A DNA stretch of 62,041 nt, the filler included, from Jimgerdemannia flammicorona (Eukaryota), in the NCBI GenBank assembly GCA_003990765.1. It is 3 parts of 3 records of this genome, joined end to end, with 100 filler letters (N's around TTAATTAATTAA, not from the genome) between each part and the next. Parts side by side here need not be neighbours in the genome. Positions count along the whole stretch, not along the records: positions 20,719 to 41,333 come from RBNJ01001634.1; 2 more parts are not named here. One strand, 5' to 3'. Numbering within the stretch: the first letter of the stretch is position 1; the number at the start of each line of letters is the position of its first letter. Made by a program: the position numbers and the translations under genes. The notes below the pieces were generated by a model. The model searched no databases. It was not told the DNA's origin and saw only the letters and a list, made by a program, of their open reading frames with translations. Positions 6,236 through 41,333 of this stretch are shown here, piece by piece.

Positions 6236-6599
6236 AATACAAATGCACTTCATTTATTTATTATCTGATTATATGTATTGGATATGTTTTTGTAGATGTA
6301 TGCTTTAGGGCATCTTCTTGGAAGTGCTTTGTTAATTTACAAAATGATTCTTGTTTCCATTATAATCATAGTGATATTGTCTATATAAATTTCTGAAACA
6401 ACTTATACTATATGGAAAAATGTTTCAGTAATTCCTAGATGGACGAGGTGCAGTAGGCACTGAAGTCTGTCACAGACTTCGCAAGCATTGTGGACTGTGA
6501 AGAGTTGGTTTCTGCCATTCCAAAGACAATGGTGTACTTTATTTATAGTGTCTTAGATATGTCTTATGTGTGAAATAGTATGTTCTATAGATATAAATA

Positions 6600-9000: not shown

Positions 9001-9099
9001 TAGTACTTTGACGTACCGATGACGTCGGCAGTATATACATCACTGCGCCACAGTTCGAAATCGTCATTTCAATCCGTAACAGTAACCAAACCCTAAAAA

Positions 9100-16833: not shown

Positions 16834-18657
16834 ATGGACGGCATAACACGTCACTTCACGAGCAACCCACCCATAACAATGCAAAACGGTAAAGGAAAAA
16901 AATCTGCGACCACTTCGAATACCACCTGTGCAACCTCGACCATCTCCCCCCCAACAAGTGAACAAACGCGCCTCCCTCACCCTACCGGAGAACCCTCGTC
17001 TTCCCAGCAGTCTGTTCGCAACATGCAAGTGCATCACAAGAAGGACGTCAAGTCTCCAAGTGAAATTATCGAAAACCTGAAGGCGAAAATGCTCCACTAC
17101 GAGCTCAACGAAATAACGTCACTGTTTGAACTTCTTACCCTGGCCGACGAGCCTACTACAATCCGTCAGCTGAAGAACGAGGTTGAGGAGCGCAACACGC
17201 AAATTGCTCAGTTGCAAAAAGTTGTGGCTGCACAACTTGAGACTGAAAAACAATGCAGATCGCAGTTATTTTTCAACAATTCGTACATAATTCAAGGAGA
17301 ACACATCGTGTCAGAGCTTTCCTCTCGGAACAATACTCTAGAAATGCGGATGCATGCAACGGAAGACGAAATGATCCAAGCGCAATCCGTCTGGAAAGAT
17401 GACCAAAAATTCACGTTGATTAAGCTTGCCGTATGTGAAGCAAGAGTCGCGGAGTTAGAGGCTTTCAGGAAGACTGCCGGCGATCAACATGACGATGTCG
17501 TTCGCGCCAATAATGAACTCGTGTTGCGGTTAGCACAGTTGGAGAAGGAGAGCGCTAAGCAGTTGGGAAAGTTAGAGATAAACCTGGCTATAGCAGAAGT
17601 GACTGCCAAGGCAATGGAAGGTGAGTTGGTCCTGGAAAAAAGGAAGGTAGAGGCGCTGGAGGCGAAACTCACTTTGCACGAGGTGGAAGCAAAGGCGATG
17701 CAGGAGTTGCTAGCGGAGCGTAACGGAACAGTAACTCGGCTTGAAGGTGAGCTCGCCATGGAGAGCGAAAAGGCAATGGTGTTGGGGAAGAAACTTGCTA
17801 TACACGAGGTAGAAGCAAAGGCGATGCAGGAGTTGCTAGCAGAGCGTAACGAAAAAGTAACTTGGCTTGAATGTGAGCTCGCCATGGAGAGCGGAAAGGC
17901 AGTGGTGTTGGGGAAGAAACTGATAACACAGGGCGACGACTTGAAAGCAGCAAAAGAGAGGGTCGGCAAGTTCGAGGATTTGAGGGCGGAGGGTGAGAGA
18001 GCTGTAGTGAAGTTGGATAAGAAATTGGCAAAGCAGGAGAAGGATGTGAGGAGGATGAAGGAGAGGACGGAGGAGCTTGAAAGTAAACTATTGATGGAGA
18101 GCAAGAGGGTCGAGCAAATGAAGGCGAAGAGAGATGTGGCGTTGGTGGCAATGGAGAAGAGGCTGGTGATGCAGGAAAAGGATGCCAGTAGGATTGCCAG
18201 GAGTTTGGAGGCGGAGAGAGACGTGGCAGTAACTGCACTGGAGTCACAGCGGTCGAGACTCGAAGAACAGCTTAAATGTTTGTTGGAGTCCAAGGGGCTC
18301 GCAGAGGAAACCGCTTCTGCTTTGAGTTGTCATCTTGTGCAGGCGCAAAGCTGTTCCAAACATCTTGAACGGACCGTTGAGATGAGGGACAAGAAGATCG
18401 ACCATCTACTGCAAGACAGGAATGACTACGCCAAGCTGATTGATGGGTTGAAGATCAAAACAAAATCGATGACCGAGGTGCTCGAGGTGGCAGGCAACCA
18501 AAAACAGTCATCAACCGATGTAAAGGTTGCTGAGCTCGAAGTGTGGACCGCGGAAATCGACATGCTACGCAGGAATAAGCAATATCACGATCATCGGGCC
18601 GACAAGTACGGGCAGGCGGTGCAGAGACTCAGGGATGGCTACGCAAAACTCCGGTGA
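16834..18657 (+). CDS. Long coiled-coil protein (607 aa) with S/T/P-rich N-terminus and an internal 42-aa tandem repeat
   Basis: Uninterrupted ORF rich in E/K/L/A heptads. A 126-nt unit (KLxxHEVEAKAMQELLAERN..ELAMES..AxVLGK) is duplicated at 17665 and 17791. Confidence 0.75.
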   Translation: MDGITRHFTSNPPITMQNGKGKKSATTSNTTCATSTISPPTSEQTRLPHPTGEPSSSQQSVRNMQVHHKKDVKSPSEIIENLKAKMLHYELNEITSLFELLTLADEPTTIRQLKNEVEERNTQIAQLQKVVAAQLETEKQCRSQLFFNNSYIIQGEHIVSELSSRNNTLEMRMHATEDEMIQAQSVWKDDQKFTLIKLAVCEARVAELEAFRKTAGDQHDDVVRANNELVLRLAQLEKESAKQLGKLEINLAIAEVTAKAMEGELVLEKRKVEALEAKLTLHEVEAKAMQELLAERNGTVTRLEGELAMESEKAMVLGKKLAIHEVEAKAMQELLAERNEKVTWLECELAMESGKAVVLGKKLITQGDDLKAAKERVGKFEDLRAEGERAVVKLDKKLAKQEKDVRRMKERTEELESKLLMESKRVEQMKAKRDVALVAMEKRLVMQEKDASRIARSLEAERDVAVTALESQRSRLEEQLKCLLESKGLAEETASALSCHLVQAQSCSKHLERTVEMRDKKIDHLLQDRNDYAKLIDGLKIKTKSMTEVLEVAGNQKQSSTDVKVAELEVWTAEIDMLRRNKQYHDHRADKYGQAVQRLRDGYAKLR

Positions 18658-20718: not shown

Positions 20719-22861
20719 AAAAAAAAAAAAAAAAAAAAAAAGAAGTCTAATTACATCTACTCCCCATCTCTGAAAGATGTTGTCTGGTGGTCTAATTGGT
20801 TGCAGTGGTGCTTGGTAATTCTTCCTTCCTTAGTACTTCTAGCAGGTGTTACATTTCTTGAGTATGTTCCAGACTTATATTCTGAGGTTGGGCCAATGTT
20901 GGTATGTTGTTTGCAGCTTCTCTTCTATATTCACCTGTCCTTGATGGGCTTTCTGATATTCTTTTCAGATGAGATCTTTTTGTACCTTGATGGTCTGAGG
21001 GGCTTCCTTTAGGGTATAGTTTCTCATGATACCCTTCTTCTAGTTTATTGGGGTTAGTAGAAAAGTACATCAATATTGTTGTGAGTTTTCCCTGCCTTAT
21101 GGATGATGGTGATTTTGTAATCCTGGAGGATAAGAATCCAGCAGGCTAGGATTCCAGTAGGTTCCTTGTAGTTGAATAGCTATTTGAGGGCTGAATGGTC
21201 AGTTATCAGAGTGAATCTTTTTTCAATAAGATAGTGTTTGAACAGAGTAACTGCCCATATGACTGCAAGGTATTCTAATTTGGTACTGCCATAATTCATC
21301 TGTTGCTGATTGGTAGCTTAGCTTGTATAAGCTATCATATAGTATTGTTGGTCAGGTCCTTCTTGGGCTAGAACTGCTCCCAGGCCATCTTTAGAAGCAT
21401 CTGTATATAAGATGAATGGCTTCTATAGATTGGGGTAGATGAGGATTGGTGCTATAGTTATGCAGTTTTTGAGTTCTTTGAAGGCTTTCTCTTGTAACTC
21501 TATTTATTTGTAAGGTACTCCTTTCTTGAGAAGGATTCAGATTGAGGTAGCGATTTGGGTGAAGTCCCTGATAAATCTTCTGTAGTAGGATACTAGCATC
21601 AGGAAGAATAGTATTTCCTTTGGAGTCTTGAGTATTGGCCAATTGTTGATCTTCTCAGTTTTCTTTGGGTCTATATGTGTTCCTTTTTTTAAAACTACAA
21701 ATTTAAGGAATTTGAGTTTCTGTTTCCCAAAGTAGCATTTCTTTACATTGAGTCTCAGATGGTTCTTGTGGGTGAGCTTGAAGAATTCTTCTAGGTGGTG
21801 CAGATATTCTTCAAAATTTGCTGAATAGATGTTGGAATCATCCATATATACAATCAGGCAGTGGTAGATCAGGAGGGCATAGACTGAATTTATAATCCTT
21901 TAGAAGATGGGGGATATATTACAAAGTCCAAAGGACATTTGGAGATATTCAAAAAGTTTTCCTAAAGCAAGAAAGGCTGTCTTTTGAATGTTATTGAAGT
22001 CTATGGGAATTTTGTGAAATCCTGCAAAAAGGTTCATACTGCTGAAGTATCTGGTATCTTATAGCTGGTCCAAGAGATCATTGATTCTGGGCAAAGGATA
22101 GACATCCTTTTTGGTAACTGAATTGAGTTTCCTGTAGTCTACACAGAGTCTCTATCCTCCTTTCTTTGATACAATAAGTATAGGGCTGGTCCAAGGGCTG
22201 GTTGAGGATCAGATGACTCCATTGTCTAAGAGTTCTTGAATGTGCTCCTTTTCGAATGTCTTTAAATGATAGGGTATTCTATAGGGTTTCTGCTGGATAG
22301 GTGTTGCATTTTCTATATTTATGCTATGGTGATATGATGAGTTGTATGGCAGGTTGCCATAGTCTATAGTGAAGATATTTTGATATTTATTGAGAAGATC
22401 CACTAGTTGTTGCCATTGCTAGGGTATCAATTCTTCTCCAATATTAGTGGAAGGCTTCACTATCTTCTGGGTCGCAGAGAGGCCTTTCCTTTCTTCTAGG
22501 ACCTTTTGCCATTTTCTGATAGGTTTAGCTCATAGACTTCTCTGTAGATTTGGTTGAGAAAGAGCACCAAATATCCTATAATGGTTCCTTTTGGCAAGAT
22601 GATGGTTTCCCAACTTTGGTTGGTTGCTCAAGAGTACACTGGGTTCATCTTGTCAGGAAATATATGTCCTTCTATATCCAGATGCAGGATATCTTCATTG
22701 GGTTCAAAGAAGAGATTTCTGGAATCAGGTGGTGCAAAGATTTTGAAAGTGGTTTGCTCTCTAGGCTCCAGGATGAGATTCTTGTGTAGTTTGACTGATT
22801 GGTGGTACACTTGCTGGGGAACATTCCTCTTGAGATAATTGATATAAAGGAGATGTACTTA

Positions 22862-23280
22862 CTTCTTGTCTGAGCTTCCAAATCCTTTGGCTTGTCTCAT
22901 TCCTCCAGTCAGTTCAGTGACTTCTTACAATTGTGGAGTCTTGACCTTCATGAAGACTGCCTGGGCAATCTTCTGTCCTCTTATGATTTAGTATCATTCT
23001 GTACTACTATTGTACAGGATAACCTTGATTTTGCCTATATATCCTGGGTTAATAGTTCCTCCTTCTACAGTTATTCCTTGTCTGGCAAGCCCAGACCTTG
23101 AGGTCAGTTAAATATAAGTTCCTTGGGGTGGCTGTATGGCTAGTCCAGTTCTGATTATGAATGTTTTTTCAGGCTTGATGAATTCATCCTCCAGACTGTA
23201 AAGATTATACCCTATATCTTCTGGGTAGGCTTTGGTCAGGGGTTTAGCCTTGAGATGTAGCAGAGCATACTAAGCAACAT
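22862..23280 (-). pseudogene. dUTPase domain within Gypsy pol, between protease and RT
   Basis: All five trimeric dUTPase motifs in order: IGYNL (motif 1), SRSGLA (2), GGTINPGYIG (3), KIAQ (4), RQAKGFGSSD (5). One frameshift and several stops. Confidence 0.9.
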
Positions 23281-23854
23281 TTTTGCTGAGTTTGAGCTGT
23301 CCTTGGGCTGAAGCTCTGCTAGCAGAGAGCCTCCAGGCTCTGAGGTTAAGGTGCAGCCATCTGGCTCCAGTGGAGGGGTCTCAGAGATAATTGATTTCTC
23401 TTTTTCCTATAGAGTCTAGGGCTTCTATGAAGTTGGTGGTATCTTCTACTCATCCTTGATGGGTGGCATGTCTGATAAGAGCTAGGATGTCTTCTCCTAA
23501 ATCATAAATCTTGAGGATCCTTCTCTCTGGCTTCTTGGTCTGGCTTTTTCAGATCTGATCTCTGTTATCTCCTCTCTTCAGGGTATAGATTGTAACATTA
23601 TGGCTGAGGTAGATCTTCTGATGTCTGCAGTCTCAGTAGTCTGGGTATCTTCTATGGTTACAATATCTCATTGCTCAGAAATGCTATTCCCAGTTATTGA
23701 TCTCTTGTTGTCTTGAGAATCAGTATCTGTCTTAATCATAAGTTGGGGAAAGAGTGGATAAGAGGTTTACTTCTGTTCAGGTAAAGAGACCTTATCCTCT
23801 AAATTGACTTTGCAATCTGGTAGTAACTTCTTGAAAAGTAGTTGACTGTGCAAC

Positions 23855-24319
23855 TATAACAATTTCACAGTCATATTTAGTCTTAGTACATTTTTCACAT
23901 CTTTTAGTCAGTCTTTTCTTGTTATTTCTTGAATATTCTACTATGTTCCAGCACCTTCTACTTGCTTAGAAACCTTCTCTCAGCACCCAGACACCACTAG
24001 AACATTCTTATCTTTCCTTGGCATCAAGTATCTTATCTCAGCTAGTTATGGAACTTTTTGGAACATTGTAGAATAATATTAGTCAGCTTTGCTGAGAACT
24101 TATTTCTTGGCATTTCTCTTTCTTTCCAAGATTCTTCCAGATCTTTCTTTCAGATCATGTATAAATATCCTTGTTTTTTGCCTGAATAAAGCTCAGAATA
24201 TTTTCTCCCAGAAATCCTTCAAGAATACTTGAACCTTTAAGTATCTCATTGAGCTACTTTAGGCCAACCAGAACTTCCAGATTTAGCTGCTTTCTCTTAA
24301 AGAAACTAGAACCATTACA
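23855..24319 (+). repeat. 5' LTR of chromovirus (465 bp)
   Basis: Direct repeat of 28385-28848. The initial TG has mutated to TA; ends ...ATTACA. Confidence 0.95.
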
Positions 24320-27300
24320 CTTGGTAGCAGCAGTTTCGTTACACCTTATCTTATTAAGAAACCTCACATGAATTCAGAAACCAGTCACAACTAGTCACAT
24401 GAACCTGAAATGAGCCATGAAGAGTCAGCCTATCAGTTAGACCCCCCTGCTACAGAAGAAGCAGGAGGAGTGTCAAACATCATTTAGATATAAGCACTGG
24501 TGTCATTGACCCAGACTTTTGAGGACAAGTTCAAGTCTTGCTTGTCAACCAGAAGAATCAAGACTACACAGTTAAAGGAGACCGAGTCATGCAAATGATC
24601 CTGGAAAAAGCCAGTCAACTCAAGATTACAGAAGTCCAAGAACTCCTTAAAACCAAATGAGATCAAAAGGGTTTTGGCAGCACTGATCAAGCAGCAAGTC
24701 TTAGCAAAAATTGAGCTCAAGCTATGCTCATTTTCAAATATCTAGTCAAAGGAAAAGAAGTTCAAGTACTTATAGACAGCAGAGCTACAGGGAACTTCAT
24801 CAATCAGAACCTCATTGAAAGCCTCAAGATCCTCACCAAGCCTGCACTCAAGAACAATAGTATAGTCACTATAGATAGTACTCTGCATCCCATTGAGTCA
24901 ATTGCTACCAAACTGCCTATCAAGATCTAGAAATATTGGGAATGAGTAGACTTTGAAGTTGCACCACTAGGAGATCATGACCTGATCTTAGAAAAACCCT
25001 GGCTTATGAAATACAACTACATTGATTAGTGTAAGAATGAAGTCACTCTACTTCAAGGTGGAGCCAACATTACCATCAAGATAGACAAGACCATGAGCAA
25101 GACCCAGATTGCAATACTGTCAGCTATATAGTATAAGAAAGTACTCAAGAAGGCAATGCATACCTTTATTGTAATGATCTGCCCCAAGAAATAAGACAAG
25201 AGACTATCAGTCAATGAAAGCATCAAGCTATTGCTAGAAGAATTCAAGGATGTCTTTCCAGACAAGCTACCTGATCTATCACCTATACAAGAAGTTGATC
25301 ATGAAATCAAACTGACCCCAGGAGCTGTACCACCCAAGAAATATATATACTGTATGTCACTACTTGAAATTGAAGCAGTCAAGAAGGAATTAGAAGAACT
25401 ACTTGCATGAGGAGCCATCCAGCCAAGCAAATCTCCTTATGGCTCACCAGTCTTATTTGTCAAGAAGAAGTATAGTACCCTGCAAATGTGTATAGACTAC
25501 TATATACTCAACAAACTCACTGTCAAGAACTGCTATCTGTTACCCTTAATTGATCAAATCTTTGATGCTCTCAAGAATACCAAGTACTTCACCAAGTTAG
25601 ACCTCATGTCAGGATACCACCAGATCCGAATCAAGCCAGAAGACATTCCCAAGACTGCATTCATGACCCCCTTTGGACTCTATGAATTCCTGGTCTTAGT
25701 ATTTGGTCTCATCAATGTACCTGCTATATTCCAGACTCTGATGAACAAGATATTCAAGGACCAACTATTTATTTTCCTGTTGGTATATCTTGATGACATC
25801 CTGATCTTTAGTACAACTAAAGAAGAACACCTCAAATACATTCAAATAGTCCTGGAGATTCTGTGAAACCACAAGCTTTATACCAAGCTCAAGAAGTGTG
25901 AATTCTTCAAAGAACAAGTTGAATACCTTGGCCATATTGTCTCTGTACAAGGAATTCAAGTAGACCTACACAAGATAGAAGCAATTGAAGAATGGCCCAT
26001 TCCATCGAACCTCATAGAACTCTGATCTTTCCTTGGTCTAGCTGGCTATTATTGTCACTTTGTCAGAAACCTCTCTGGCATTGCTGAGCCACTGACTAAC
26101 CTCATGAGGAAGGCCCCACACTCAAACCACTATGTACCCTATACCTGGGACCTCTTCTGTCAACAAGCCTTTCAAGAACTCAAGAACTACCTGACCCATG
26201 CTCCAGTCCTGCATAATGCAGATCAAGGTCTAAAATTCATGGTCACTACTGATGCATTGAATTTTGCCATTGAAGCAGTTCTGTTACAAGATGATGGCAA
26301 AGGACATTGCCCTATTGCTTTTGAGTCCCACAAGCTGGCCCCAGCTGAACAAAAGCTAGCTACTTACAAGAAGGAACTACTAGTAATAATATATGCACTA
26401 GACCACTAGCAATGCTATCTAGAAGGTGTTGAGTTTGATGTCATTACTGATCATCAATCTCTCAAGTATATCAACACTCACTCTATTATGTCTATAAGCC
26501 AAGTAGAGCCTCAAGCTTCAAACCTTCAACCTGATGATCATATATAAGCCTGGTAAGACACTTGTAGTACCAGATGCCTTATCAAGGTACCCAGACCTTG
26601 CTACAATCATGCAAGTCACCTTGACATCAGAATTCCTAGACCAAATCAGGTAAGCTTATAAAGAAGACACAGTTGCCACTAGAGTTTTCTTAAATGAACT
26701 CAAGGATACATATGCTATTGAGAACAATCTGATCTATCATCAAGACCAAGTCTACCTACCTGAAAACATGAATCTACACTACAAGATTTTGCAAGAACAC
26801 CATGACTCCCCTCTCACTGGTCACCTGGGAATTGAGAAGACCATCAAGAATATCCAATACCACTACTATTGGCCAAACATGGTCAAGGAAATCAAGAACT
26901 ATGTTGCCAGCTGTGATCTATGTCAGTGCAACAAGTCTACCAACCAAGCACCTATCAGTTTGCTATAACCATTGCCAATTTCTACCAAGAAGTTCAAGCA
27001 AGTTACTATGGACTTTGTAACTCAACTACCATGAACTCAATCTGATGCCAATGCTATTGTCATATTCATTGACTGCCTGACCAAGACTATGGTTGCTGAA
27101 CCAATCACTACCAATGCTACTATATCTGAGATTACAAGAATCTTTTTCAAGTCCATCTTCTATCACTATGGCCTACCACAAGTAATTGTTAGCAATTGTG
27201 ACCCCAAGTTCACCAGCCACTTCTGGCAAACCCTCTTCAAGACTCTGGGAACCCAATTGGCTATATCTACTACCTTTCACCTACAAACTGATAGACAAAC

Positions 27301-28384
27301 TAAACACATGAACAGAACTCTAGAATAAATGCTTAGAAACTATATTTCTTATAAGTAAGATGATTGGGACATCTACCTGACTTATGTAGAGTTTGCATAC
27401 AACAATGCTGTCCAATCATCTACTGGTCTTTCCCCTTTTCAGTTACTCTATGGTCAAGATCCTGAGACCCCTGCAAGTCTATTCTCTTTTAAGAAAATCA
27501 GTCAAATACAAGTCCCAACTACCAAGAACCTTACAGACAAAATGGAAAAACTACTCAAGATTGCTACTGTAAATCTTCAGAAGGCTCAACAGCATCAAGC
27601 CAATTATGCTGACAAGAAATGCTGTGATGTCATCTATACTATTGGAGATCAGTTCTACTGTCTACCAAGAACCTCAAAATACAATCTCAAGTCAACTGCC
27701 CTTTGAAAAAGTTCTACCCCAAGTATATTGGACCTTTTGAGATCACTGAACAAGTCTCTGCATCCTCCTACTGCCTCAAGCTACCTGAAACCATGAGAGT
27801 GCACCCAGTCTTTCATGTGTCACATCTCAAGATCTGGAACCAGTCACTACCCTACCCTGGTTGAATTCCTAAGCCTTCTGCCCTGGTGATTATTGAAGAC
27901 CATATTGAGTATGAAGCTGAGAAAATCCTTAACAAATGAATCCACTACCACTGTCCCAAATACCTAGTCAAATGGATGGGTTATCCTGAATATGATGCTA
28001 CCTGGGAACTACTGGTCAATCTCAAGAACTCTCAAGATCTAGTTCAAGACTTTGAGGCAAAATACATTGTCCAATCTCTATAGTGACTTTCTTGGATTGT
28101 TGATGACCTATAGTAATGACCAGTGCCTTATGCATCAGAAGTTTACTTTGGGACCCTGGAACTAGCAGAACATTTAATGAACAAGAAGTCTACTGAAATG
28201 AAGCTACTAGCTGGGTTCAAACCCCTCCTAGTTGATTAGTCTGGTAATAGGCCCTCTGCCCTATACAAGGATGGCCAATCTCCACCAATATGCCAATTCA
28301 AGTTTGAGAAATTTTGATTAAGTATATCTAGCCTTATGTTACCTAAGAACTCAATGAGGACATTAGTTCTTAAGGAGGGAGGGA

Positions 28385-28848
28385 TGTAATAATTTTACAG
28401 TCATATTTAGTCTTAGTACATTTTTCATGTCTTTTAGTCAGTCTTTTCTTGTCATTTCTTGAATATTCTACTATGTTCCAGCATCTTCTACTTGCTTAGA
28501 AACCTTCTCTCAGTGCCCAGACACTACTAGAACATTCTTGTCTTTCCTTGGTACTAAGTATCTTGTCTCAGCTAGTCATGGAACCTTTGGAACATTGTAG
28601 AATAGTATTAGTCAGCTTTGCTGAGAACTTATTTCTTAGTATTTCTCTTTCTTTCCAAGATCCTTCCAGATCTTTCTTTCAGATTATATATAAATATCCT
28701 TGTTCTCTACCTGAATAAAGCTCAGAATATTTTCTCCCAGAAATCCTTCAAGAACACTTGAACCTTTAAGTATCTCATTGAGCTACTTTAGGCCAACCAG
28801 AACTTCCAGATTTAGCTGCTTCCTCTTAAAGAAACTAGAACCATTACA
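28385..28848 (+). repeat. 3' LTR of chromovirus (464 bp)
   Basis: TGTAAT...ATTACA, preceded by the PPT. Confidence 0.95.
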
Positions 28849-31800
28849 GTAACTGTAGTTGGGAGTTCTGGTCTTTGGAGCCTCTGTCTTTCTTATTAGT
28901 TTAGTAAATAGCACTGATAGCAGTAGTCTCTAGAAGAGTGAAAGACCATTTGGTGTGGACATCTTAGCCGAAAAGCCCTTTCTTAGTGAGTTTCTTTCTT
29001 GGAAATAATGGTGATTGTACTGGATTCTCCTTCTATATTCCAGGGATCATTATCTTCAGGTGGTGTCCAGTGAGAGTTATCTCAGGGAATGAGTTTGGAG
29101 ATCTCTTCTTCCTCAGGCACTTTTTGTTTAGAAACTTCCTGTTTAGGGGTTTCTTCTTCCTCAGATGATTCTTGACCCCAAATTGCTTATACTTCTACAG
29201 CTTCAGCTGCAGGTATCTCTGGAACATGTCTGCATTTCTTCTTCTTTCTTCTGCACTTGGGGCAAGCTGTGCCAGGCGAATTCCTTGTCCCAATGATCTT
29301 GGAGGAGTGCTCAGAGCACTTGTGTCTCTTGAGACAGATAGGGCATCCTTTGATTTCTTCTGCAATGACTCTAATAGTGATGGGGATGGTGTTCTTGACC
29401 CATATATTGTCTTCTGGCCTGTCATCTACCAGGTTGATTCAGGGGTTGAGTCTGAGATCATTTCTATCTTTGGATTCTTCTTCCTCTTCTGTGGTAGACT
29501 CTTCACTGCTGGTATATTCTTCTTAGATAATGACCTTCTTCTTTTTCTTCAATTGCTCATAGCTGGTCACCTTGACCCTATACTTCTTGCCTTGGTAGTC
29601 AAACTTGAATACTTGTTGACTAATATCAACAACTGTATTCATTTCCTTCATCCAGTTGGTGCCAAGGATCATATCATAGATAACAGCTTCAGTGACAATA
29701 GCTTTTGGAATAGAGAACTGAATGTGTCCAAGAGAGATGATGATGGTTCATACTTCTCCCAGGGGTTGAGTCCAGGCTCCATCTGCTACTATAATGCTGA
29801 GATTAGATGGTCCATCAATGGGCTATTGGAGGGTGTCCAGGAATTGTTTGGCAATAACACAGATAGCTGCTCCTGTATCTATGAGGATTTTCGCCTTTTG
29901 TCCTCCAATATCTCCATGTAGGTAGGTACTGACATGTCTTTCTGCAGCTTGTATAGGGGTGGGAGCTGGCTCTTGCTGTAGGATGGGGACTGGACCAGTG
30001 CTAGACATAGTAGTCCTCAGCAATTTGTTTTAGACTCTAGGTGGTGTCAGTTACAGGAACTGTAGAAGAGGGACTTCTATCTTAGCTTCTTGAATCTTCT
30101 GCCAGACTTCATTGTAGATGTCTCTGGGTATGGTCTGGGTGTACTTCTTCTTGGGCTTTGGGGCAGCAGGCTCTCATTCTTCTTGTTTCATTTCTTTATC
30201 CTCTGATGGCAACTCATTTGTCTTAGGAGCAAAGAGTGAGAGAGTCTGGAGAGATGTATCTACTTGCTCCTCCTTGTGTTCTTCATCTTCTTCTTGAATG
30301 ATTCTTCTGCTGGTGTTCCTGGATGGCCTTCCTACAGGTCTCTTCCTTTTCTCTACTGGGTAAACTGTCTTTTGAGTGGTGACTTTGGCTGGGTATAAGT
30401 CTAGGTTACTGTAGTCTTCACTATTGTTTTCTTCAAAATCTTCAACAGAATGAGCTTTAGTCTTCTTGTACTGGGTTTCACTTTTTTGGTTTGATGGTTC
30501 TGAGTTCCTTTAGTCACTTCTTTTATTGTTACATTCAGTGGCATAGTGTCTGAATTGTCCACAGTAAAAGCATTGGACTTGGGCTCTGTCTCTGATAGAG
30601 TATCTTCTTTCTTCTTGCTGGTAATTTCTGTTATCTCTTGGTGGATAACCTTGGTTCCTCTATGGTGGGTATCCTCTGTTATCTTATTGGTAGCTCTGAT
30701 TTTCATATGTAGTGAGTTTTTCAATCTGTCTAACCAATCAGTCCAACTTGGAACTAAGATCTTGGATTTTACTTCTGTTCTTCTTTCCTTTTTTGACTGG
30801 TCTTCTTTCTTTGAATCTTTTCTATTCTTGAAGAAGTCCTTATAGGGCTTTGACCAAAATGTCTTCTTTATCATCCTTTTTGTCATGGTCACTCCAGGTA
30901 GTTTCTTGTCTGATATCAAAGAATCCTTGGACTACATCTACTTGTTCTTCAGACCTTCTGATACCTAGGATGTAGATATGTTGGGCAATGTTCAGGGGAA
31001 TTCCATTCATGAAGGTCATTGGACCTATGATATCTTAATTAGTGGTATTGAACCTGGCTACACATATTCTCTTCTGGATTCTTGTGAAGAATACTCTGGG
31101 TGATTCTCTAAGGTTCATTTTCATCTCTATGATAGATTATTGAGCCTTGTAGTGGGTTTCACTTCCTGCATATTTTTCAATGAGCCAGTGGGCCATGGCT
31201 ATATATTCTAGCTTATAGAATGCTACTGCTTATATTTCTACTACTAGTGCTGAGTGTGGGTCAGTTGCTGTTCAGTGGAAAATTCCTCTAGCTGGTTCTC
31301 TGAGCTAGACCTTGTAGATGGTGATTTTCCTTTCATCTGAGAGATTCCTCAGGGTTGCGATTCCTTCGGAATTCTCTAGGATCTTCTTCTAGATATCTTG
31401 CAAAAGTTGGCAATGGGTTGGCCATTTCACCATCACTTTCTTCTAATTCTGGTTCTGGTTCAGATTCTAATTTGGATTCTGACTCTGATTCACTTTCTGA
31501 ACTATTACTGGAGATGGGGGTGCTTGGGTATCTTGAGAATAGTGTTATAGACCTTGGACAAAGTGGGATAAGTCTAGGTATCCTTGAAGGAGCTACTTCT
31601 AATTCTGCAATGGCTAGTAGTAAAGATTCAATAGGTGAAATTGGTGGGACTGCTGTGGGGTATCTGGCTGCTGAATTTCAGGCTTGTGCAATGAGATCTT
31701 CTAATTCTTGGGCAAGTTCTTCAAAGTCTTCAACAGGACCACCTATATTGTCTGGTTGATCTGGTTGAGGATTTTGGGCTATACTGGTTTCTGATTGGGA

Positions 31801-31970
31801 TCTCTCTGATGCTGGGTAGGTGGTAAGTCTTGAGGTAATTACTTCTCTTCTTGTCCAAATGCTGGAGATGACTGGTTCTCCTGTAGTGGCAGAGATTGGT
31901 GTTGTATCAAATATATCCAGTTTGACTGTGGGTTCTTGTAAGCTAAAAAGTTATATTGATTTTTGAAATC

Positions 31971-31988
31971 TTTCCAGTTGAGCCCCCA
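31971..31988 (-). promoter_or_regulatory. Primer-binding site, tRNA-Pro-like
   Basis: Minus strand reads TGGGGGCTCAACTGGAAA two bases after the LTR's CA end. This resembles the tRNA-Pro PBS TGGGGGCTCG... after CpG decay. Confidence 0.7.
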
Positions 31989-31990
31989 AA

Positions 31991-33177
31991 TGATGCCTGG
32001 CTCAATGGAGGCAAATTACAAGGTGTAGTTTGGCTTGAGCCCCTAGTTACTTTGTTAAAAGCAATAAAATATTCTTAGTGTTTAGTGGTATAATAGTTAA
32101 AGCTGGATATCTGCAAGCGATTTCCTTATTGGGATGGTTCTCTGGGTGTAGCAGTGATTTGTATGTCTTTCCTTCCTGGTCAACGAGTAATTTCTGTATA
32201 GTGTGGTGTTCTCCAAAAGTAGGCAATTTCTGCATAATGATCTTGGTATGATCTCTACAAGTATGCAATTTCTGTATAACAATCTCTTTGTGTAGTACGA
32301 CGATCTCTGTGTAGTATGAGTGGACTTCTTATGTGATTTGGCAGATGACTTGATTTGGGTGCAGGTTCACTGGGAATAGAGGATGGTGTGGATTCTTCCT
32401 GAATTGGCAGCTTACTGGGAATTGTACTGGCAGCAGATTCTTCTCACTGGAAATGGATGAATAACTCAGATGGCATAGATAACTCAGATGACACAGAAGG
32501 CAGATAATTCAATAACTCAGATTCTTGGCAAGTTATGTCAAAGACTAGCTTCGTTTGCACAAATGAATCACTGTGAAGTTACATCTAGTAGACTGACTTG
32601 TGGTAAGGTTCCTTAAGGCTCTCTAGGAATGTGGGTTTCTCTTCAGACTTATCTGGCAAGTGAACCAAAATGTAGTGGACTTCTCTTGAAAATGGTGGCT
32701 TATTCCTTAAGTAGCGAATTACTCAAATGGTGGCAAAGTTCTTCCTTGAACTTGGTGGCAAACTTCAGGCTTATCTGGCAAGCAAACTAAGGCTTTGTAT
32801 CGGAAAGTAGACTGGAGTGGAAAGGGGACCAATGCTCAATCTTTAGAGGCTTCTTTGGTGTTTATATTTCAGACTGAGGTTTATTCACTCTTATCTCTGG
32901 AGTATTTTATACATTGTGGTTACTATCTGGTTACTATGTGGCTAACTATAGATTTGCTATTTGTGGCAAGTTGTGCAGGTCCAGCACAAGTGTGCAGGTC
33001 TGGCACAGGTGTGCAGGTCCAGCACAGGTATGCAGGTCCTACATAGATATACCTTATCTGGTAGTCTGGCTATTTATACAGTTTTCCACAGCAATGATTG
33101 CTGTGTCTGGTTACTATGCTATGTGTTCACATCATCTGGCTAAGTTATAATTCAGGTGATATGTTTTTGGTTTGTCA
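31991..33177 (-). repeat. 5' LTR (about 1.19 kb) of the dUTPase-Gypsy element
   Basis: Bounded by TGA...TCA and adjacent to the PBS. Contains internal 20-nt tandem repeats at 32973-33040. The outer end could alternatively be 33179. Confidence 0.7.
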
Positions 33178-33829
33178 CACTACATCACGAAATTGAGATG
33201 TGGTCTCTAACTATACCCAGAAGTACCCGAAAATCTCCAGTATTTTTCATAATCTGGGCTCCAGGAGTACCTGAACATATCTGGCGATTTGATATAAAAT
33301 CTCCAGAGAATCTCCTGATGTCTCCAGAGAATCTCCTGATGTCTTCACGAACCTTCAGCACAATTTACTCATATATCCAGAGATGGCATTTTCATCATAG
33401 ATATCTCCCAGAGCATTGAGATATACAAAGATGCTTTTATTGACAAATAATTTTGTAGTATATTTTTTATTGAATGCCAACCAAAATAAATTACAATTCA
33501 TCATCCAAAACAAATATCCGCAGAATAGCAACAATGAAGAATAATCCACATGGTGATAATGAACATGTGGAATGGACAATAGATGGGACAAAGTGTGGCA
33601 ATGAAATATAAACTGCTGAGTGGCCAGATGATATACTAATGAGTGACAATAGATGAAGAATGGACAATGAGCAACAATGGTGATGAAATCAACAATGAAT
33701 GGAATTGCTCAGCAATAATAGAATAGACAATGATCAACAACAGACTCCTATTTTTTTTTTTTTTTTTTTTTTTTTAACTAAAGATTGTCAAAAACATACC
33801 ATGACCAGCAACAAGATATCATAGGTGAG

Positions 33830-34415
33830 AGAAATGGGCATATCAATGAGTTCAGAGAGTCAATAAGTTCGGGGCAGATAGCGTCAATGAGTTCAGGGCA
33901 GATGGGTATTGTCAATGAGTTCAATGAGTTCAGGTGGATAGGCATGGCGATGATAATAATGATGACAACAGAGACACCAGAAGAAATATCAATAGATAGA
34001 CCAGACGATGACAAGACCCACAACAAATTAAAAGGAAATAGGTATACCTGGAAACAGGCCAATTCAACATGAGAGAAATGGGCATGTCGATGAGTTTGGG
34101 GCAGATGGTATCGATGAGTTCATGGAAGATAGTGTCAATGAGTTTGGGCAGATGACATCGATGAGTTTGGGGTAGATGGCGTCGATGAGTTCGGGGCAGA
34201 TGGCGTTGATAAGTTTGGGGCAGATGACGTTGATGAGTTTGGGGCAGATGAACACATTGATGAGTTCAATGAGTTTGGGATGAGTTCGATACTGGACAAA
34301 TTAAAAAGAAATAGGCATAGGCCAATTTGATGTGAGAGAAATAAGCATGTCAATGGGTTTGGATAGTCAATGAGTTCAGGTAGTCAATGAGTTTGGGTAG
34401 TCAATGAGTTCCAGG
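33830..34415 (+). repeat. Approximately 24-nt minisatellite (gtcgatgagtttggggcagatg-like)
   Basis: Many diverged copies; a larger sub-block (gagagaaatgggcat..caaattaaaaggaaatagg) is also repeated. Confidence 0.85.
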
Positions 34416-34499
34416 TAGGTAAAGACAACACACATACCAGATGATAGCGACGAGATGACCCCAGATAATGGCGATGAGCCTGTTCATCTGAATTCATCC

Positions 34500-35851
34500 C
34501 TATTTCCTGTATCCTTCTCCACAAGATTGATCCATAAGCAACAGCGCATCAAACTTAACCCCTCCTGCCTCATCTTCCTTGTGCCTCTGCACTACCATCC
34601 CTCTGCTCCTTTCCTTTATCTGGTTGCAGAGATACCCCACATTAGCAACATGCAACAAAGTGGCCATGCTGGGTGGCTGGCCCACCTCATGGTACCTGTC
34701 TGGGTTCTTGTGAGTGAGATTGATGAGAACGTGAATTGTAGCCTTGAGACAGGATATGGCTGTTAGAGGGGGGATGTAGTTGTGGGAGTTTAATGTAAAG
34801 AAAAAAAAAACAGATATACTTGATAAATAGTAAATCATATGTACTGGCTGCATTGTCCGAATTATCATTGTATGCCTCAACTGTGACGTGCTCAGGATCA
34901 GAGGTTTTCAAGCAAAAGTGTGAAAGGTAAATGGTATACAATGCTTTCTACCAATCTTGACAGAACAACAAGAAGTTGAGCAGCCTCCGAAACAGCCCCT
35001 CGATCACCGCAACCTCCATTGTATTCGCAACATGCTGCATCAACAATGTCTCAAGGATCAATAGGCAGTGTTTCAAGAGTGCAAAATTGACTAGAGCTGA
35101 CTCGATGATAAGTGCCTATATAAACATCCAGTCAGTTAAAATCAATCATAACTCCCACTCGCAAACCACCTCATTGTATGTTCCATATGCCCAAACTACA
35201 TACCTCACCACTCTCATAGCCTTTAACCTTGCCAGCATGTATTTTGCAGCATCAAGCAGGCTCTTGACAACTCATCACAGACTGCCTGCAGTCCGCAGCT
35301 TGTCCTTGGCAAAATCCTCATACTGCGTGTAATGGCGAACAGAGAGTGGATGCCCATACACTTGACCATGATCTGTGAAGTATACATGACAATCAGCTTG
35401 ATGCCATTTTGGGCTGTACTGGATTCTGATGCGATGCGATGCGACTTCTTACCTCGACATTACCATCGAAGAGCATTGAGGAAGAGACGATCTTCTTTAT
35501 GTCTTCAACCTATTTCAAATAATAATTAAATAAAATAAAATAAAATATAGACACATACATTAACCCTCACTCATAACCAAATACCAAATGTCAACCTACG
35601 CTACACACCCCACCCCACCCTCATCCTCACCAAGAACCGATCACCCTTCTTCTTTATGACTCTAGCCATGTCATGTAAGCATAATAGATCTATGGTCTCA
35701 ATGTCCAGGAACTCATCCTCCATCATCAGCAGCTCCATGTTGCATTTGTCCTGCACCAGCACCACAATCATAAAGGCCAGGCAGCAACGGATAATCTGTG
35801 GGAGCAGAGGGTGACAATTATTCTTGGGATTAGATTCAGCAGGCCATTGGG

Positions 35852-35884
<33 letters not shown>

Positions 35885-36490
35885 AGATGAGGCATGAATG
35901 AGATAAGTGGTACTTACCAGGTCATTCTCAATGTGCAGACCCTGGTAAATACGAGGGATGAAGTTGTGCATGTGGAGCTTCATTATGAACTCGGTGTTGA
36001 GTAGCTTCCATGCCAAATCAATGTAGCTGTCATAATTGCCAATCCAAATTTGTCAATAAAATTCGTACATTAATTCCAAGAAAATGATAGCCCCCAAAAT
36101 GTACTAATACAGCACTCTTTTTGATGTTCCCTCACCTATCTCCCTTCTCTACAAACAAAACTGCACCAATGCATCTTGACTGCTTGATATTAATTCCCTG
36201 GTTCTCATACAGGCCGTTGAGAATGTACTCCATCTCGTCTGAGAACTGCTTATACTCACCAGCCTCCTACAGCTCGTGCATGCTCTTGAGGTCTTTCTTC
36301 TTCCCCACAACCTGCAGGAGAGGAGACGCAAAAAAGAGACAATGGATGTCAGTGCTTCACTCGATTATGCAGATAGTAAAGCCATCTACTCAAATTATAA
36401 TGTAACCCTTGACCAGCAAACTCATCCCCCAACCCTATGCCTCTCTGTTAATCCTATCACATCCATGGCCTCATCCTCATCTGTGTCCTC
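34500..36490 (-). pseudogene. Multi-exon WAPL-domain (cohesin release factor Wapl/Wpl1/Rad61) gene fragment
   Basis: Exons translate KSMHEL*EAGEYKQFSDEMEYILNGL / YIDLAWKLLNTEFIMKLHMHNFIPRIY / IIRCCLAFMIVVLVQDK / VEDIKKIV / AISCLKATIHVLINLTHKNP / KFDALLL..INLVE. These match WAPL motifs as I know them (HELxEAGE..FxDExEY; VLxNLT; FD..LINLVE). GT-AG introns, stops and frameshifts are present. Confidence 0.8.
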
Positions 36491-36586
36491 AGCAACATCC
36501 TCAAAAAAGAGGCAATGGTCCTTAGTACCAAAATCAAAGTAGTAGACAGTGGGGACACTGCCAAGGATGTCATTCGAGTTGGACAT
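36491..36586 (-). pseudogene. Glutathione S-transferase N-terminal fragment (start codon and first about 31 codons) fused to the WAPL exons
   Basis: MSNSNDILGSVPTVYYFDFGTK-..LFFEDV resembles the fungal GST N-terminus (PTxxYFDFxxxGRGExxRLxxED) with the GRGE segment deleted. TATA-like TATATAAA about 65 nt upstream. Confidence 0.6.
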
Positions 36587-37326
36587 ATTGTGTTTTGTGG
36601 TGTGAAGGGATGTTTGCTGATGAGTTTTGGAATGCGAGAAGGGGAATTTTATATATAATTATGATTTTCATTGATAAACATGTGAGGTGTTTCCACCAAG
36701 ATCATCATATAAAATCAACCTGAACTTGACCTGTAACCTGTAACATGCCCAACCTAGAGGAGCCCAATATAGAGGACCTACTCATGAAGTGATTTCAGCA
36801 TCTTGTTGGTAACAATCTCATCAGTGCAAATCTCATTGTGGGAATCTTGCTGGGAGAACTTGGCTGTTAATCTTGAAGAGATCTTAGTCGAGAGTATGAA
36901 TCTCACTGGGGCATTTGCGATATAGTGTACAAAGTGGCCATCCAAGTGATTTGAGTAGTTTTTATTATAGAGTGTGGGCTTCCTCAGCTTTGGCAATCTC
37001 AGCATGGGAAAGAGTATATTGGTTGGGAAAGAGTGTGATGGCCAAGTTGCAAACCAAGACAATTAATTTAGAGCTTTATGACAGATTTATTCACATTCAC
37101 TCATTCACATTTTTGCATTTATGTATTACATTTACACATTTATGCATTACATTTACATATTTATGCATTATATTTACATTCACAAATTCACATATATGCA
37201 CAGAAATATCAGATAACTAATAGAATTTTGGCAGGCTGTATGGATGTATTTGGACATATGTGGACTACTAGTATAGCTGTCTGCAGGTAACATGATATGC
37301 AGTATGGACCTAATAGTCATTGATGC

Positions 37327-39026
37327 CTACCAATCTGACTTTTCATCTTCATCCATTGGGATATCCAGGTCCATGCTAATTTCCTTAGTCCTCTGTACCT
37401 CAGACAAAACCATTGTATAGAAGTCTTGAAGATTCAACTGGCCAGCATCAATATGTTTTTCAATCTGTTTTTCATAGTTTTGATAAATTTTGCCATAGTT
37501 CACAGAAAGGAAGCTCTCCTTAATATCTTTGCAAATATGATAAAGCTAATACAAAAAATATATATATATGTCTGATGAGTTTATAAATATTCAAAGATAA
37601 AAATAACTAAAGAAAACAAAACTGGACATACTAGAGTACAGACAAATGCAATCTGAGGGATTGTAAACTTATCTACAAGAATCTTATTCCACTCAGTATA
37701 ATCTTCCAGAAATAGCACACGGAGGGTGTTTCGAATATATGGCCCAGTGAATGGATTCTTTGGCTCCTGGATGAATACTGGTTTACTCTGATCATCCTTT
37801 ATAATGTCTCCATTGACATTATAGTCAAAAACAGGTAGCTCCCAGATGAACTGGTCATTGATCCAGAGATCAGCTAAAGCCTTTGAACATGATTCCTTAA
37901 CCTCGGAATCACTAATAGATCCAGTAGAGTCAAACTTGCAGTCAACAAAAATACATGCTAGATAATTTTGGACATGTTCTTTGGACTTCCCATGGGTCTG
38001 AGAATGTTCATGATCATACTGTAAATTTAAAGTATTTTTAATAGACTGAAATATCTTTAGATAGGATTAGGCTAACTCAGATATGATATTTACTTTGGAA
38101 ATGAGATCCTTAACATCATTAACATGAGGATATTTTTGGATTACCAAATCTACCATCTGTGTTTATTCCTCACATGAAGGAAAGGCATCAACAAAGAGGG
38201 TAAAGTATTGAATATCCAGGATAGCACATTTAAGCTGCTTGGGGCTCATTCCATGCTTCTGACAGATATTATGGTTGACCTCGGCATCTGTTCTTCAAGA
38301 TTTCCTATATGGAGAGTTCCTGTGTAAATTTATACTAAATATCAAAAAATTATAATTATTAATATTTCAGCATCATCACACCTAGTGGTGCAGATTATAG
38401 ACACGTGCAACTCCATAGAAATATTAAGAAAATTACAAAACATACCCAATTTTTTTTTCGAATATACTGACATGAAGAGGAACAGGATCTAATTCTTCTG
38501 CATCATTATCCTCATCCTAAAATTCTGTATCTTGAGCTGTGCAATCCTGAGCTTCCTCATCTTGAACATCTTGCTGTCTATAGTTATCTTCACTACTTTC
38601 AATAATATTTTGAGCAGGTTGTTGGATTCCAAGGTCATCTTCATCACTATCAATGATTTGGTGAGAAGGTCTGGTGGTCTTCTGGTACTTGAACTGTGGC
38701 TCAATTTCTTCTTGCTGTCCAGAGCTATCCTTGTTATTCTCAATGGTTTGGTGAGAAGATCCAGTAGTATTTTGGTGCTTTTGCTTAATAGTTTGTTGCT
38801 GGTGAGATCTAGTGATCTTTTGGCTGGTAATTGTGCTGATCTTTGGCTGGATGACCTTTGGGCTGTTGACCTTTGGATTACTCTTTGGCTCAACAGTATA
38901 TTCATCTCTATCAGCAAGATGCTTAGTATTTTCTTTTCTACAAGCAGTCTTGCATAATCCCTGAATCTTATTGAAAATCTTTTGATCGTCTGATTTGAGA
39001 TCCTTTACATTCTTGCATTGGCCCAT
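37327..39026 (-). pseudogene. Multi-exon transposon accessory gene (DUF6532-like), divergent from the transposase
   Basis: Low-complexity Q/D/E N-terminal exon, then YFTLFVDAFPS.., PFTGPYIRNTLRVLFL.., FTIPQIAFVCTL|LYHICK..DW*. Short GT-AG introns and some stops. Family assigned by motif resemblance only. Confidence 0.55.
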
Positions 39027-39084
39027 CTTGTGCAGTCCCTGAACCTTGTTGGATCATCCAATTAGGGGTGTTGGCTCACTTTTT

Positions 39085-40145
39085 CAGTATGTTGAGTGTG
39101 GTATGCAGAAAAGAGAAGTTACTAAATGTCCAATGTGTGGAGTGGCATGCAGTGTACAGTATCTGATATATAGTATATGGGTGTGGTATTGTGGCATACA
39201 GTATGCAGAAATGAGAAGCTGCTCACCTTCCAATATGTGTAGCATGTGGTGTGCAGTGTGCAGTGTATAGAAAAGATGAACTGCTTATGTCTTATGTATG
39301 CAGTGTGGGGTGCAGGGTATGGCATGTGGTGTATAGTATGCAGTGTGTAAGAATTATGTTTTGTGTCATGCAGAAAAGAGAAGCTGCAAAGTTGCAAGGT
39401 AGGTAGGTGGTTATAAGATACATCATTTATGAAAGCTGCCATGAAATGTGAGCTTAAGAAATAAAATTGATCTCCATCATCACACATAGGTGAGAAAATA
39501 AGCTCCATCATTTAACCATAAAAAATACAAGTAAGCTAAATGATGCAATTACCACCACAGGTCATCAGATATGAGCAGCTCCATGCTGCATACCAAACTC
39601 ATTGGACATAAGCTCAGACCACATGCCACACACATCAGACTTTTGCTTTTGTATACTACACTCATCGAACATAAGCCTGCACACAACACACAACCACACT
39701 CATCAGATATAAGCAGCTCCTCTTTTCTGCATGCCATACACCACATACATTGGACATTCATTTCTGTATACCACACTCATATAAGCAGCTCTCCTTTTCT
39801 GCATGCCACATACTGCACACCACACACATTGAACATGAGCAGCTCCTCTTTTCTATACATCATATACATCAGACATTCATTTCTGTATACTGTACACCAC
39901 ACTCATCAGACGTAAGCAGCTCCTCTTTTCTGCACACCATATGCCACACACCGCACACCATACACATCGAACGTGAGCAGCTCCTCTTTTCTGACATATA
40001 TTGGACGTGAGCAGCCCCTTTTTTCTGCACATATATCACATACATTGGATGTGAACAGCTCCTTTTTTCTGCACACCACATATTACACACATTGGATGTG
40101 AGCAGCTCCTCTTTTCTAGCTCCTCTACGAGTAGCTTCTCTTTTT
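39085..40145. repeat. Minisatellite arrays in opposite orientations between the two divergent transposon genes
   Basis: gcagaaaagagaagctgc-type units at 39085-39390. Reverse-complement units tgagcagctcctcttttctgc at 39570-40145. Confidence 0.8.
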
Positions 40146-40180
40146 TGCCACATTCTATATACCATACTGCACGAACAACT

Positions 40181-40363
40181 ATGACTCATCACAAGTCTGG
40201 AAACAGACTTGAATGTCATATTTGCCACAGAGTATTCAAATCGGCCTCAGGGCTGACCCAGCACAACAATAGCCAATATCGCCACATCTCCAGAAGTCCA
40301 AGTTCTCTTCTGATTGATGACAGTATAAATCTCAAAACATTACAGGTGAATTCTGCTTCTACA

Positions 40364-40410
<47 letters not shown>

Positions 40411-41333
40411 AATTGGAGTACCTCCAGATGTTATAAACCTCTTGCCACAATTACCAATTGATGGCAGTGAAATTCCTGCTGCAACTGCTGCAATTGGTGA
40501 TTCTGAACACAATTTCAAGCATGATTCCAAGCACAATTATGAGCATGATTCTGATTCTGAACACGGTTCCAAGCATGATTTCGAGCATGATTCCGAGCAC
40601 AATTCCAAGCACAATTCCGAGTACGATTCTGAGCACAATGAGCACAATTCTGAGTATGATTCTGAGTATGATTCTGAGTATAATTCTGAGTATAATTCTG
40701 AGCATGATTCCAAGTATGACTCCGATGGTGATGCAAGCTCTGAGATAGAATCTGTAGATATTGACCAAGGATTTGTGAGTCTCCCAGATCTGATAGTACA
40801 TGGTGACATTTTACCACATCATCAGGCTGGCTACATATATCAAACAGAAGGTTCTGCATCTCCAGTTTTCGAAATTCAGAAAACTCGACATGAACAGGAT
40901 GGACATCCATATCATCCCTGGTTGAATGAAGATGAGCTCTGGCTTACCGACTTTTTGTTTTCAAAGTCCAAAATGTCGATGAAAGCTGCTGACTATTTAC
41001 TGGATGGATTTAAATACCAGAGAATAGTAATGTCTGGTCTATCTTTTAATACAAGTAGACAGATGTTAGAGCGCATTTATCAAGCACTATTTATTCAGGT
41101 AGAGTGATTGATAGTTATTGAAGTATATTTGTTAATTGTATATTATAATTATTGAGTATTAATTACTATAATTACATTTTAATCTGTTTTAGAAATTCTC
41201 TCATATAGTTATTACTGTAAAACATAATTCCGAGTCTTGGAGTGGAGACTATATTTTATGGTATCAAAATCCTCTGAATATTATCCAGAGCCTCTTCAGC
41301 AATCCTATATTCAAAGAACAAATGGTATATACT
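40181..41333 (+). CDS. Plavaka-family transposase, 5' part (exons 40181-41098 and 41193 to the gap)
   Basis: N-terminal C2H2-like finger CHICHRVFKSASGLTQH, poly-Ala and acidic 12-nt repeats. Then PYHPWLNEDELWLTDFLF..MS..AADYLL..SFNTSRQML, an intron (41099-41192), and LWYQNPLNIIQSLFSNPIFKEQMVY, all typical of Plavaka transposases. Confidence 0.8.

Follow-up and report, generated by a model that had tools for sequence, protein, structure and literature searches.

Jimgerdemannia flammicorona carries a reading frame that starts like a GST and continues in frame into WAPL exons, which raises the question of how the two genes came to be joined and whether the fusion works or ever did. The DNA analysed here, called the window, is a stretch of 62,041 nucleotides made of three contigs joined at N spacers, with the chimera on the contig C1634 (window positions 20719–41333). 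This is a real, in-frame, transposon-made GST–WAPL chimera, and it is dead in the copies examined. Our analysis bears out a preliminary description of it as a mobile, multi-copy fusion of a GST 5′ part to the WAPL domain with an in-frame junction, in which the lesions specific to the window are late transitions. The explanation that we hold to be probable, if some way from certain, is that the chimera is dead cargo of a Pack-type transposon whose WAPL part came from a diverged working WAPL allele, an account that needs no function of the fusion.

A PlavakaB element and its cargo slot

The chimera sits within a CACTA-like DNA transposon of approximately 12.2 kb belonging to PlavakaB, a group defined in the available text of PMC12730594 by CATCA..TGATG ends and duplications of 2–3 bp. 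Outside the chimeric gene, the window copy has the following parts.

33183–33196, no strand: terminal inverted repeat (TIR) of 14 bp, CATCA type; the cargo-side end of the element, where copy alignments stop, with a flank ending in TA
33197–34479, no strand: subterminal region with tandem arrays (periods of 17–71 bp), shared with the GST-carrying sister elements
36587–36700, minus strand: putative promoter, from sequence and alignment; this upstream stretch is also present in the GST-carrying elements and has a TATA-like run some 60 nt ahead of the ATG
37100–39053, minus strand: decayed accessory gene with several exon-sized frames, common to both subfamilies
40180–41333, plus strand: transposase gene, 5′ part only, with a C2H2 finger (zf-C2H2 E 3e-4, under the cut-off) and an acidic repeat, running to the contig end at 41333

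First, the element has termini of the form 5′-CATCA..TGATG-3′, and its 14-bp TIR finds 28 exact matches in the assembly, against 0 for the reversed control. Second, insertions are flanked by target site duplications of the PlavakaB kind (GG/GG, TT/TT and AC/AC), although the window contig covers just one end of its own copy. Both termini and the GG/GG duplication lie on a single contig in C4474. C6451 and C1725 together represent a single insertion, interrupted by a poly(A)-tailed element with a duplication of about 14 bases, and jointly span about 12.2 kb between TT/TT flanks; C13339 and C6028 have AC/AC flanks (both pairings are ones that we infer across contigs). Five of six left ends pair one-to-one with a right end, which has a probability of 0.016 by chance. 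Third, a Plavaka transposase domain is present, in a decayed gene, in C6451 (PF18759, E 6.4e-16, 58.9 bits). This copy is 93% identical to the window across 34940–41333; the window contig stops before the Plavaka domain. The accessory gene gave no convincing Pfam match, and its nearest Atlas clusters, DUF6532 and DUF6698, which are commonest in Basidiomycota, are a weak lead with a low recognition score.

Other family members vary in form. C4474:8267–9748 is a 1.48-kb internal-deletion derivative that keeps both termini, and C16667 is apparently a second piece with the same flank. A more diverged family element lies in the region C14296:1854–2881, with about 1 kb of other DNA between the upstream region and the end.

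The rest of the window is populated by other sequences. Nested, decayed LTR retroelements occupy 21391–33179, with RVT_1 at 21540–21899 and 25411–25863 and direct repeats of about 460 bp at 23857 and 28387. Only 3 bases separate an LTR-like end from the Plavaka TIR at 33183. At 41434–62041 are three decayed copies resembling non-LTR retroelements (class assigned by eye from RT motifs), with strong G/C skew and two of them inverted. A very AT-rich, foldback-like long inverted repeat, with arms 79–96% complementary in several pieces, lies at 631–2170. An AT-rich contig carries an open 419-aa RING-finger frame (4362–5621, plus strand; zf-RING_UBOX E 3e-11) and a split frame that looks BTB/SPRY-like by eye (9097–9782, plus strand), and a 628-aa open frame at 16771–18657 (plus strand) is coiled-coil-like, with a 126-bp internal duplication and no Pfam match.

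What the element carries differs between subfamilies. Four sister elements (on C1066, C6028, C6817 and C21591) have the same upstream region and the same ends as the chimeric elements, with a GST in the cargo slot; from this we conclude that WAPL DNA replaced GST. Native WAPL DNA (4811–6827, about 2 kb, with 8 introns) took the place of the GST after about codon 30, in frame. Counted by 5′ junctions, 9 elements carry WAPL and 4 carry GST, numbers that are lower bounds given the fragmented assembly. The GST of the sister elements has three exons and is decayed and 3′-truncated; in one of them it matches GST_N_2 (E 4e-6, over the cut-off), and in C6817 a roughly 560-bp insertion with inverted ends sits inside GST exon 1 (2290–2835). 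Compared by eye, the sister cargo runs into element repeats before the C-terminal part that is present in P0012. Of a complete GST, with its N-terminal thioredoxin-like and C-terminal helical domains, the chimera holds about 30 codons.

The nearest GST piece comes from Jimgerdemannia; P0012, the closest public piece, reaches 58–61% over exon 1. A word-index protein search with a decayed GST exon gave no match, and a HMMER search returned 108 GST-like proteins, with a best identity of 61% over part of the query only. The fragmented assembly yielded no close intact GST donor, the best intact relatives reaching 40% and 55%, a result that agrees with part of the element's history lying outside the present genome.

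The chimeric gene and the native WAPL

The gene model was built by aligning native WAPL with 13 element copies, 9 of them chimeric and 4 GST-only. All features lie on the minus strand, listed in reading order with native coordinates in parentheses.

36458–36586, minus strand: chimeric first exon of 43 codons, comprising about 30 GST codons, about 13 nt of probable filler and the last codons of native WAPL exon 1; shared 12-nt in-frame deletion in the GST part; donor AT in the window copy
36175–36311, minus strand: captured WAPL exon (4972–5108), where the Pfam WAPL domain starts; TAG at 36269 in the window copy only; GT>AT at the donor in the window copy and C2985
35918–36026, minus strand: captured WAPL exon (5229–5337)
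35631–35795, minus strand: captured WAPL exon (5435–5620); shared 21-nt in-frame deletion (~35701), 7 residues
35453–35509, minus strand: captured WAPL exon (5727–5783)
35204–35372, minus strand: captured WAPL exon (5870–6049); frame shifted at ~35332 by a 10-nt deletion common to the covering copies; in the window copy only, stops at 35277 and 35274 and the loss of 1 nt near 35219
34956–35115, minus strand: captured WAPL exon (6128–6287); donor GT>AT in the window copy
34845–34880, minus strand: captured WAPL exon (6373–6411); shared 3-nt deletion
34480–34759, minus strand: last captured WAPL exon (6533–6826); shared 3-nt and 11-nt (~34533) deletions; shared stop at 34486; the capture ends at a native exon/intron border

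The ATG at 36586 that opens the GST-like reading is present as first described, as is the acceptor AG before 36311 that leads into the WAPL exon 36311–36175, which by itself matches Pfam WAPL (E 0.0037). The first exon had been given 51 codons (36586–36434). We shorten it to 43 (36586–36458): the native WAPL donor lies 24 nt earlier than the one proposed, which falls within the native intron. At 36458 the native gene and 7 of 9 copies have a GT donor, which has become AT in the window copy and C6451. Nor is the splice junction the point of fusion, as had been supposed. Alignment identifies the acidic end of the first exon as the end of native WAPL exon 1, which moves the GST/WAPL breakpoint into the first exon, near 36495–36476. 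Here about 13 nt match neither parent; they are probably filler, the native gene agreeing at this place with two Endogone-like WAPL proteins. On its own, the window's first exon matched no Pfam family, and its GST origin is established by alignment to the longer GST cargo of the four sister elements. Derivation of the whole exon from native WAPL was rejected, native exon 1 being a 642-codon disordered region.

Both 5′ lesions traced in the preliminary description are real. The in-frame TAG at 36269 is a late transition, CGG in the native gene and private to the window copy among 9 covering copies, and the GT>AT change in the donor after 36175 is found in the window copy and C2985. The preliminary description traced lesions in the 5′ part; further 3′, all covering copies share frameshifting deletions.

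The native WAPL gene is on C11494, with 1,029 codons free of stops to the contig end and 8 GT–AG introns. Four of its six scanned exons match Pfam WAPL (PF07814), at model positions 3–341 of 344. A DNA search of the assembly with 34500–37100 gave 24 matches, of which nine other long ones are 89–93% identical and several cover the 5′ end only. Against the chimera, C11494 shows 77% DNA identity across 1,982 query bases, and this extent means that the likeness to WAPL is not due to chance. The element thus holds a fragment of a host gene inside its TIRs while an intact native WAPL stands elsewhere, as in Pack-type transposons. All 8 introns of the captured stretch are retained, so WAPL was copied from DNA and not from RNA, and a retrocopy origin was rejected.

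Much of WAPL was left behind. Missing from the captured piece are 636 of the 642 codons of exon 1, including the motif TYGRSRSFL (native residue 593), which fits a TYxxxR[T/S]-type Pds5-binding motif as given in the available text of PMC10656103, and the C-terminal exons, which are on C19159. Aligned to the human construct 4K6J (568 residues), the captured part reaches about residue 386, with a weak alignment at that end. It therefore has neither the N-terminal Pds5-binding motif nor the full helical domain of a Wapl, and with a third of that domain missing its folding appears doubtful.

The native gene seems to have no close companion. WAPL exon 1 and the C-terminal exons each have one match in the assembly, and neither a second intact WAPL nor a diverged donor allele was found in this fragmented assembly. 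The nearest named WAPL protein, from Endogone, is identical at 300 of 405 residues (74%); protein searches found no sister-lineage WAPL closer than the Endogone-like proteins, and 596 pattern matches in metagenome contigs included no confirmed WAPL locus.

Decay of the copies and an older signal of selection

The amplified copies share a broken ancestor. Three deletions, of 21, 10 and 11 nt, recur in every copy that covers them (7 of 7 in each case), and the 10- and 11-nt ones shift the frame; two 3-nt deletions and one 12-nt deletion are also shared among copies. The residues removed by the 21-nt deletion are present in three outgroup WAPL proteins. As reconstructed, the ancestor of the copies had all 8 introns with GT–AG borders and read through 248 codons to a stop following the 10-nt frameshift. 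That the 10- and 11-nt deletions together restore the frame was rejected, as a stop falls between them. Among six copies long enough to test, one (C4364, with all 8 splice pairs) keeps the 248-codon frame, and the others stop at 57–94 codons. Two shorter copies have an open frame throughout the 125 codons present in them, and in one more a frameshift falls at codon 27. The window copy has a stop after 57 codons and three dead donors.

Relative to this ancestor, 1,182 of 1,227 substitutions in the copies are C>T or G>A. Rates per site are 0.39 at CpG, 0.085 at CpA, 0.053 at CpC and 0.011 at CpT, and the low value at CpA compared with CpG does not favour classical RIP. CpG sites are lost alike whether replacement (0.41 per site), silent (0.40, 5′ part) or intronic (0.38), and the observed/expected ratio of replacement and stop changes is 0.95 before the shared frameshift and 1.28 after it. 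The amplified copies are therefore pseudogenes. The idea, raised with the first description, that the family consensus might be open and under selection fails for them: there is no open spliced ancestral frame, the ancestor stopping at 248 codons, and no purifying selection among the copies, which have evolved neutrally since amplification.

By contrast, the divergence that preceded amplification carries the mark of selection. Between native WAPL and the ancestor of the copies (375 codons), pS is 0.214 and pN 0.031. At non-CpG sites the two differ at 6 of 575 0-fold, 13 of 110 4-fold and 63 of 665 intron positions; the shortfall at 0-fold sites relative to introns indicates that selection acted on the captured lineage through most of the time since it separated from native WAPL. 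Had the captured branch been neutral throughout and contributed half of the divergence, about 27 0-fold changes would be expected from it alone (P 7e-7 if the clocks are equal). When the Endogone protein serves as outgroup, the 25 changed codons divide into 16 on the captured branch (13 CpG losses and 3 others), 5 on the native branch, where the copies agree with the outgroup, and 4 unplaced; amino-acid changes outside CpG number 5 native, 3 captured and 2 unplaced. These comparisons divide the history in two: a long period of selection, followed by a brief one, ahead of amplification, in which CpG decay set in and deletions arose. Purifying selection before amplification is compatible with a fusion or with a diverged native donor. 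The fusion may once have been expressible, as had been suggested; an allele that had already diverged, or the WAPL of a sister lineage, is the likeliest donor, and a once-working fusion is less likely.

If the fusion did once work, it would have been an accessory gene of the transposon, a truncated WAPL domain taken long ago from the WAPL of this lineage, expressed from the former GST start and kept for most of the time since its split from the host gene, which later broke and whose dead copy was amplified. We regard this as unlikely. In support, the scarcity of 0-fold changes and the balance of non-CpG amino-acid changes are what such a gene would leave, all 8 ancestral introns are GT–AG, and the junction and the 12-nt deletion are in frame. 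Frame-keeping events also make up 5 of 7 in exons and junction and 2 of 13 in introns (a post hoc comparison, P 0.02, or P 0.10 without two triplet slips), and the limits of the capture coincide with the Pfam WAPL model. Chromatin-acting accessory genes occur on Plavaka elements elsewhere, according to the available texts of PMC12730594 and bioRxiv 10.1101/2025.02.11.637652. The product would lack the N-terminal arm, the Pds5 motif and the last third of the helical domain; on the roles of Wapl parts drawn from AlphaFold models (PMC10656103, available text), it could dock on Scc3/SA and Pds5 and not finish release. It would then be a competitor altering cohesin residence, probably dominant-negative towards WAPL, and selected until the master copy broke. 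Such a transposon-borne cohesin-release gene would add control of chromosome structure to the anti-silencing cargo (TET/JBP, SET, methylase) of these elements. Yet the same substitution figures are expected if the donor was a diverged native gene, none of the six testable copies has a full open frame, and a third of the helical domain is gone. Moreover, the two subfamilies do not clearly differ over the first 23 GST codons (by eye, in a small sample), in keeping with a late replacement of GST.

Activity of some copy today, through a 248-codon product such as that of C4364 (a GST stub and the first third of the WAPL domain) or through small RNAs acting on the native WAPL transcript, seems to us very improbable. 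C4364 does retain its frame and splice sites, and 111 of 1,002 native exon 21-mers have an exact counterpart somewhere among 11 copy pieces (35 of them within the window copy), making small-RNA cross-targeting possible. But one open copy in six is allowed by neutral decay, and the region 5′ of the frameshift shows no excess constraint, with its observed/expected ratio near one and captured-branch changes in 5 of 174 as against 11 of 199 codons (P 0.31). Native WAPL, with a CpG observed/expected ratio of 1.16 as against 0.34 in the window copy, bears no trace of long-term methylation decay, and the window copy is disabled by its early stop and dead donors. Least probable of all is capture from the resident WAPL with neutral evolution since and nearly all silent and intron divergence on the native branch, which the lopsided intron indels favour (copy longer in 10, shorter in 4, as if more deletions had struck the native branch; among them are gains of 9, 8, 19, 11, 15 and 10 nt and losses of 11, 11 and 32 nt in the copies relative to the native gene) but which needs a roughly tenfold slower clock in transposon DNA and sits badly with G/C-to-A/T differences that run both ways at silent non-CpG sites (17 versus 13).

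Dead cargo from a diverged donor remains our preferred account. A diverged working donor allele explains the old signal of purifying selection without a function of the fusion; such a donor could have come from a deeply polymorphic WAPL locus, from a sister lineage (by way of introgression or horizontal transfer) or from a paralog since lost. Within-population silent diversity of 0.13–0.20 is on record for a fungus in the available text of PMC4576712. In favour of this account are also the lack of a close GST donor in the assembly and the missing third of the helical domain. Against a diverged donor stand the failure to find such an allele, the frame-keeping bias and the match of the capture limits to the Pfam domain. 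Dating of the capture speaks for neither side. Transversions amount to 0.8–2.9% in the backbone between subfamilies and 1.7% for the WAPL split; these two ages are about equal, and this similarity fits an old capture equally well. The ancestors were reconstructed by a rule favouring C/G, and those of the GST subfamily are rough, resting on 3–4 decayed copies. CpG loss, 21/47 in the backbone and 13/40 in WAPL introns, is of no help in the dating.

The copies record the following course of events. From a PlavakaB element carrying a GST passenger there arose a subfamily whose GST had been replaced, from about codon 30, by about 2 kb of genomic WAPL. The replacement presumably took place when a break inside the element was repaired by template switching; the retained introns and the filler at one end make this route, as proposed for Pack-TIRs, a likely one. 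The in-frame junction would be a 1-in-3 chance. The last common ancestor of the subfamily already had two frameshifts; it was then copied at least 9 times, after which the copies decayed by C>T and G>A changes at CpG, probably through deamination of methylated cytosine.

Comparison with known systems

Capture and amplification of host genes by TIR elements are known in plants, animals and fungi (PMC1947982, PMC8277862 and PMC6710886, in their available texts), and Plavaka elements with accessory genes are likewise known (PMC12730594 and bioRxiv 10.1101/2025.02.11.637652, likewise). A literature search, with most subscription journals outside its scope, found no paper on a transposon-borne Wapl. 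What this locus adds is a clean fungal case of a TIR transposon exchanging one host-derived cargo for another, in a PlavakaB family of an Endogonales-like fungus whose decay can be measured. It also carries a caution: low dN/dS of a captured fragment relative to the resident gene does not amount to a working fusion, as the donor may have been another allele.

The carrier is closest to PlavakaB of the CMCT clade (Kojima 2025, PMC12730594), with which it shares the Plavaka transposase, the CATCA..TGATG termini, a 2-bp duplication and passenger genes beside the transposase. The families described in the available text come from Agaricomycotina and carry TET/JBP cargo, and the word Mucoromycota is absent from the main text; here the host is Endogonales-like and the slot holds GST or captured WAPL. 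The cargo belongs to the Wapl/Rad61 family (PF07814; human 4K6J), nearly the full span of whose Pfam model is covered by the captured exons, and differs from its members by the lost part of exon 1, the lost C-terminal exons and the frameshifts.

For the capture, the nearest parallels are Pack-TIRs and Pack-TYPE elements, Ssk-FB4 (Tan et al. 2021, PMC8277862) and the CACTA element Tgm-Express1 (PMC1947982), where, in the texts available, intron-bearing host DNA was likewise captured, the interior partly replaced, chimeric exons formed and the result amplified. Ssk-FB4 and the present element also both have filler DNA at one breakpoint. Unlike Ssk-FB4, which is supported by peptides and selection, the chimera here is known from sequence, all of its testable copies are broken and its fusion partner is an earlier cargo gene. 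For its fate, the closest match is the transduplication of histone H3 by a fungal hAT (Dhillon et al. 2019, PMC6710886, available text), in which a housekeeping chromatin gene was similarly captured and multiplied, the copies then being inactivated through C>T changes and the original left intact. The histone capture was transcript-derived and RIP-inactivated, whereas the WAPL capture kept its introns, reached about 9 copies and decayed with a CpG bias.
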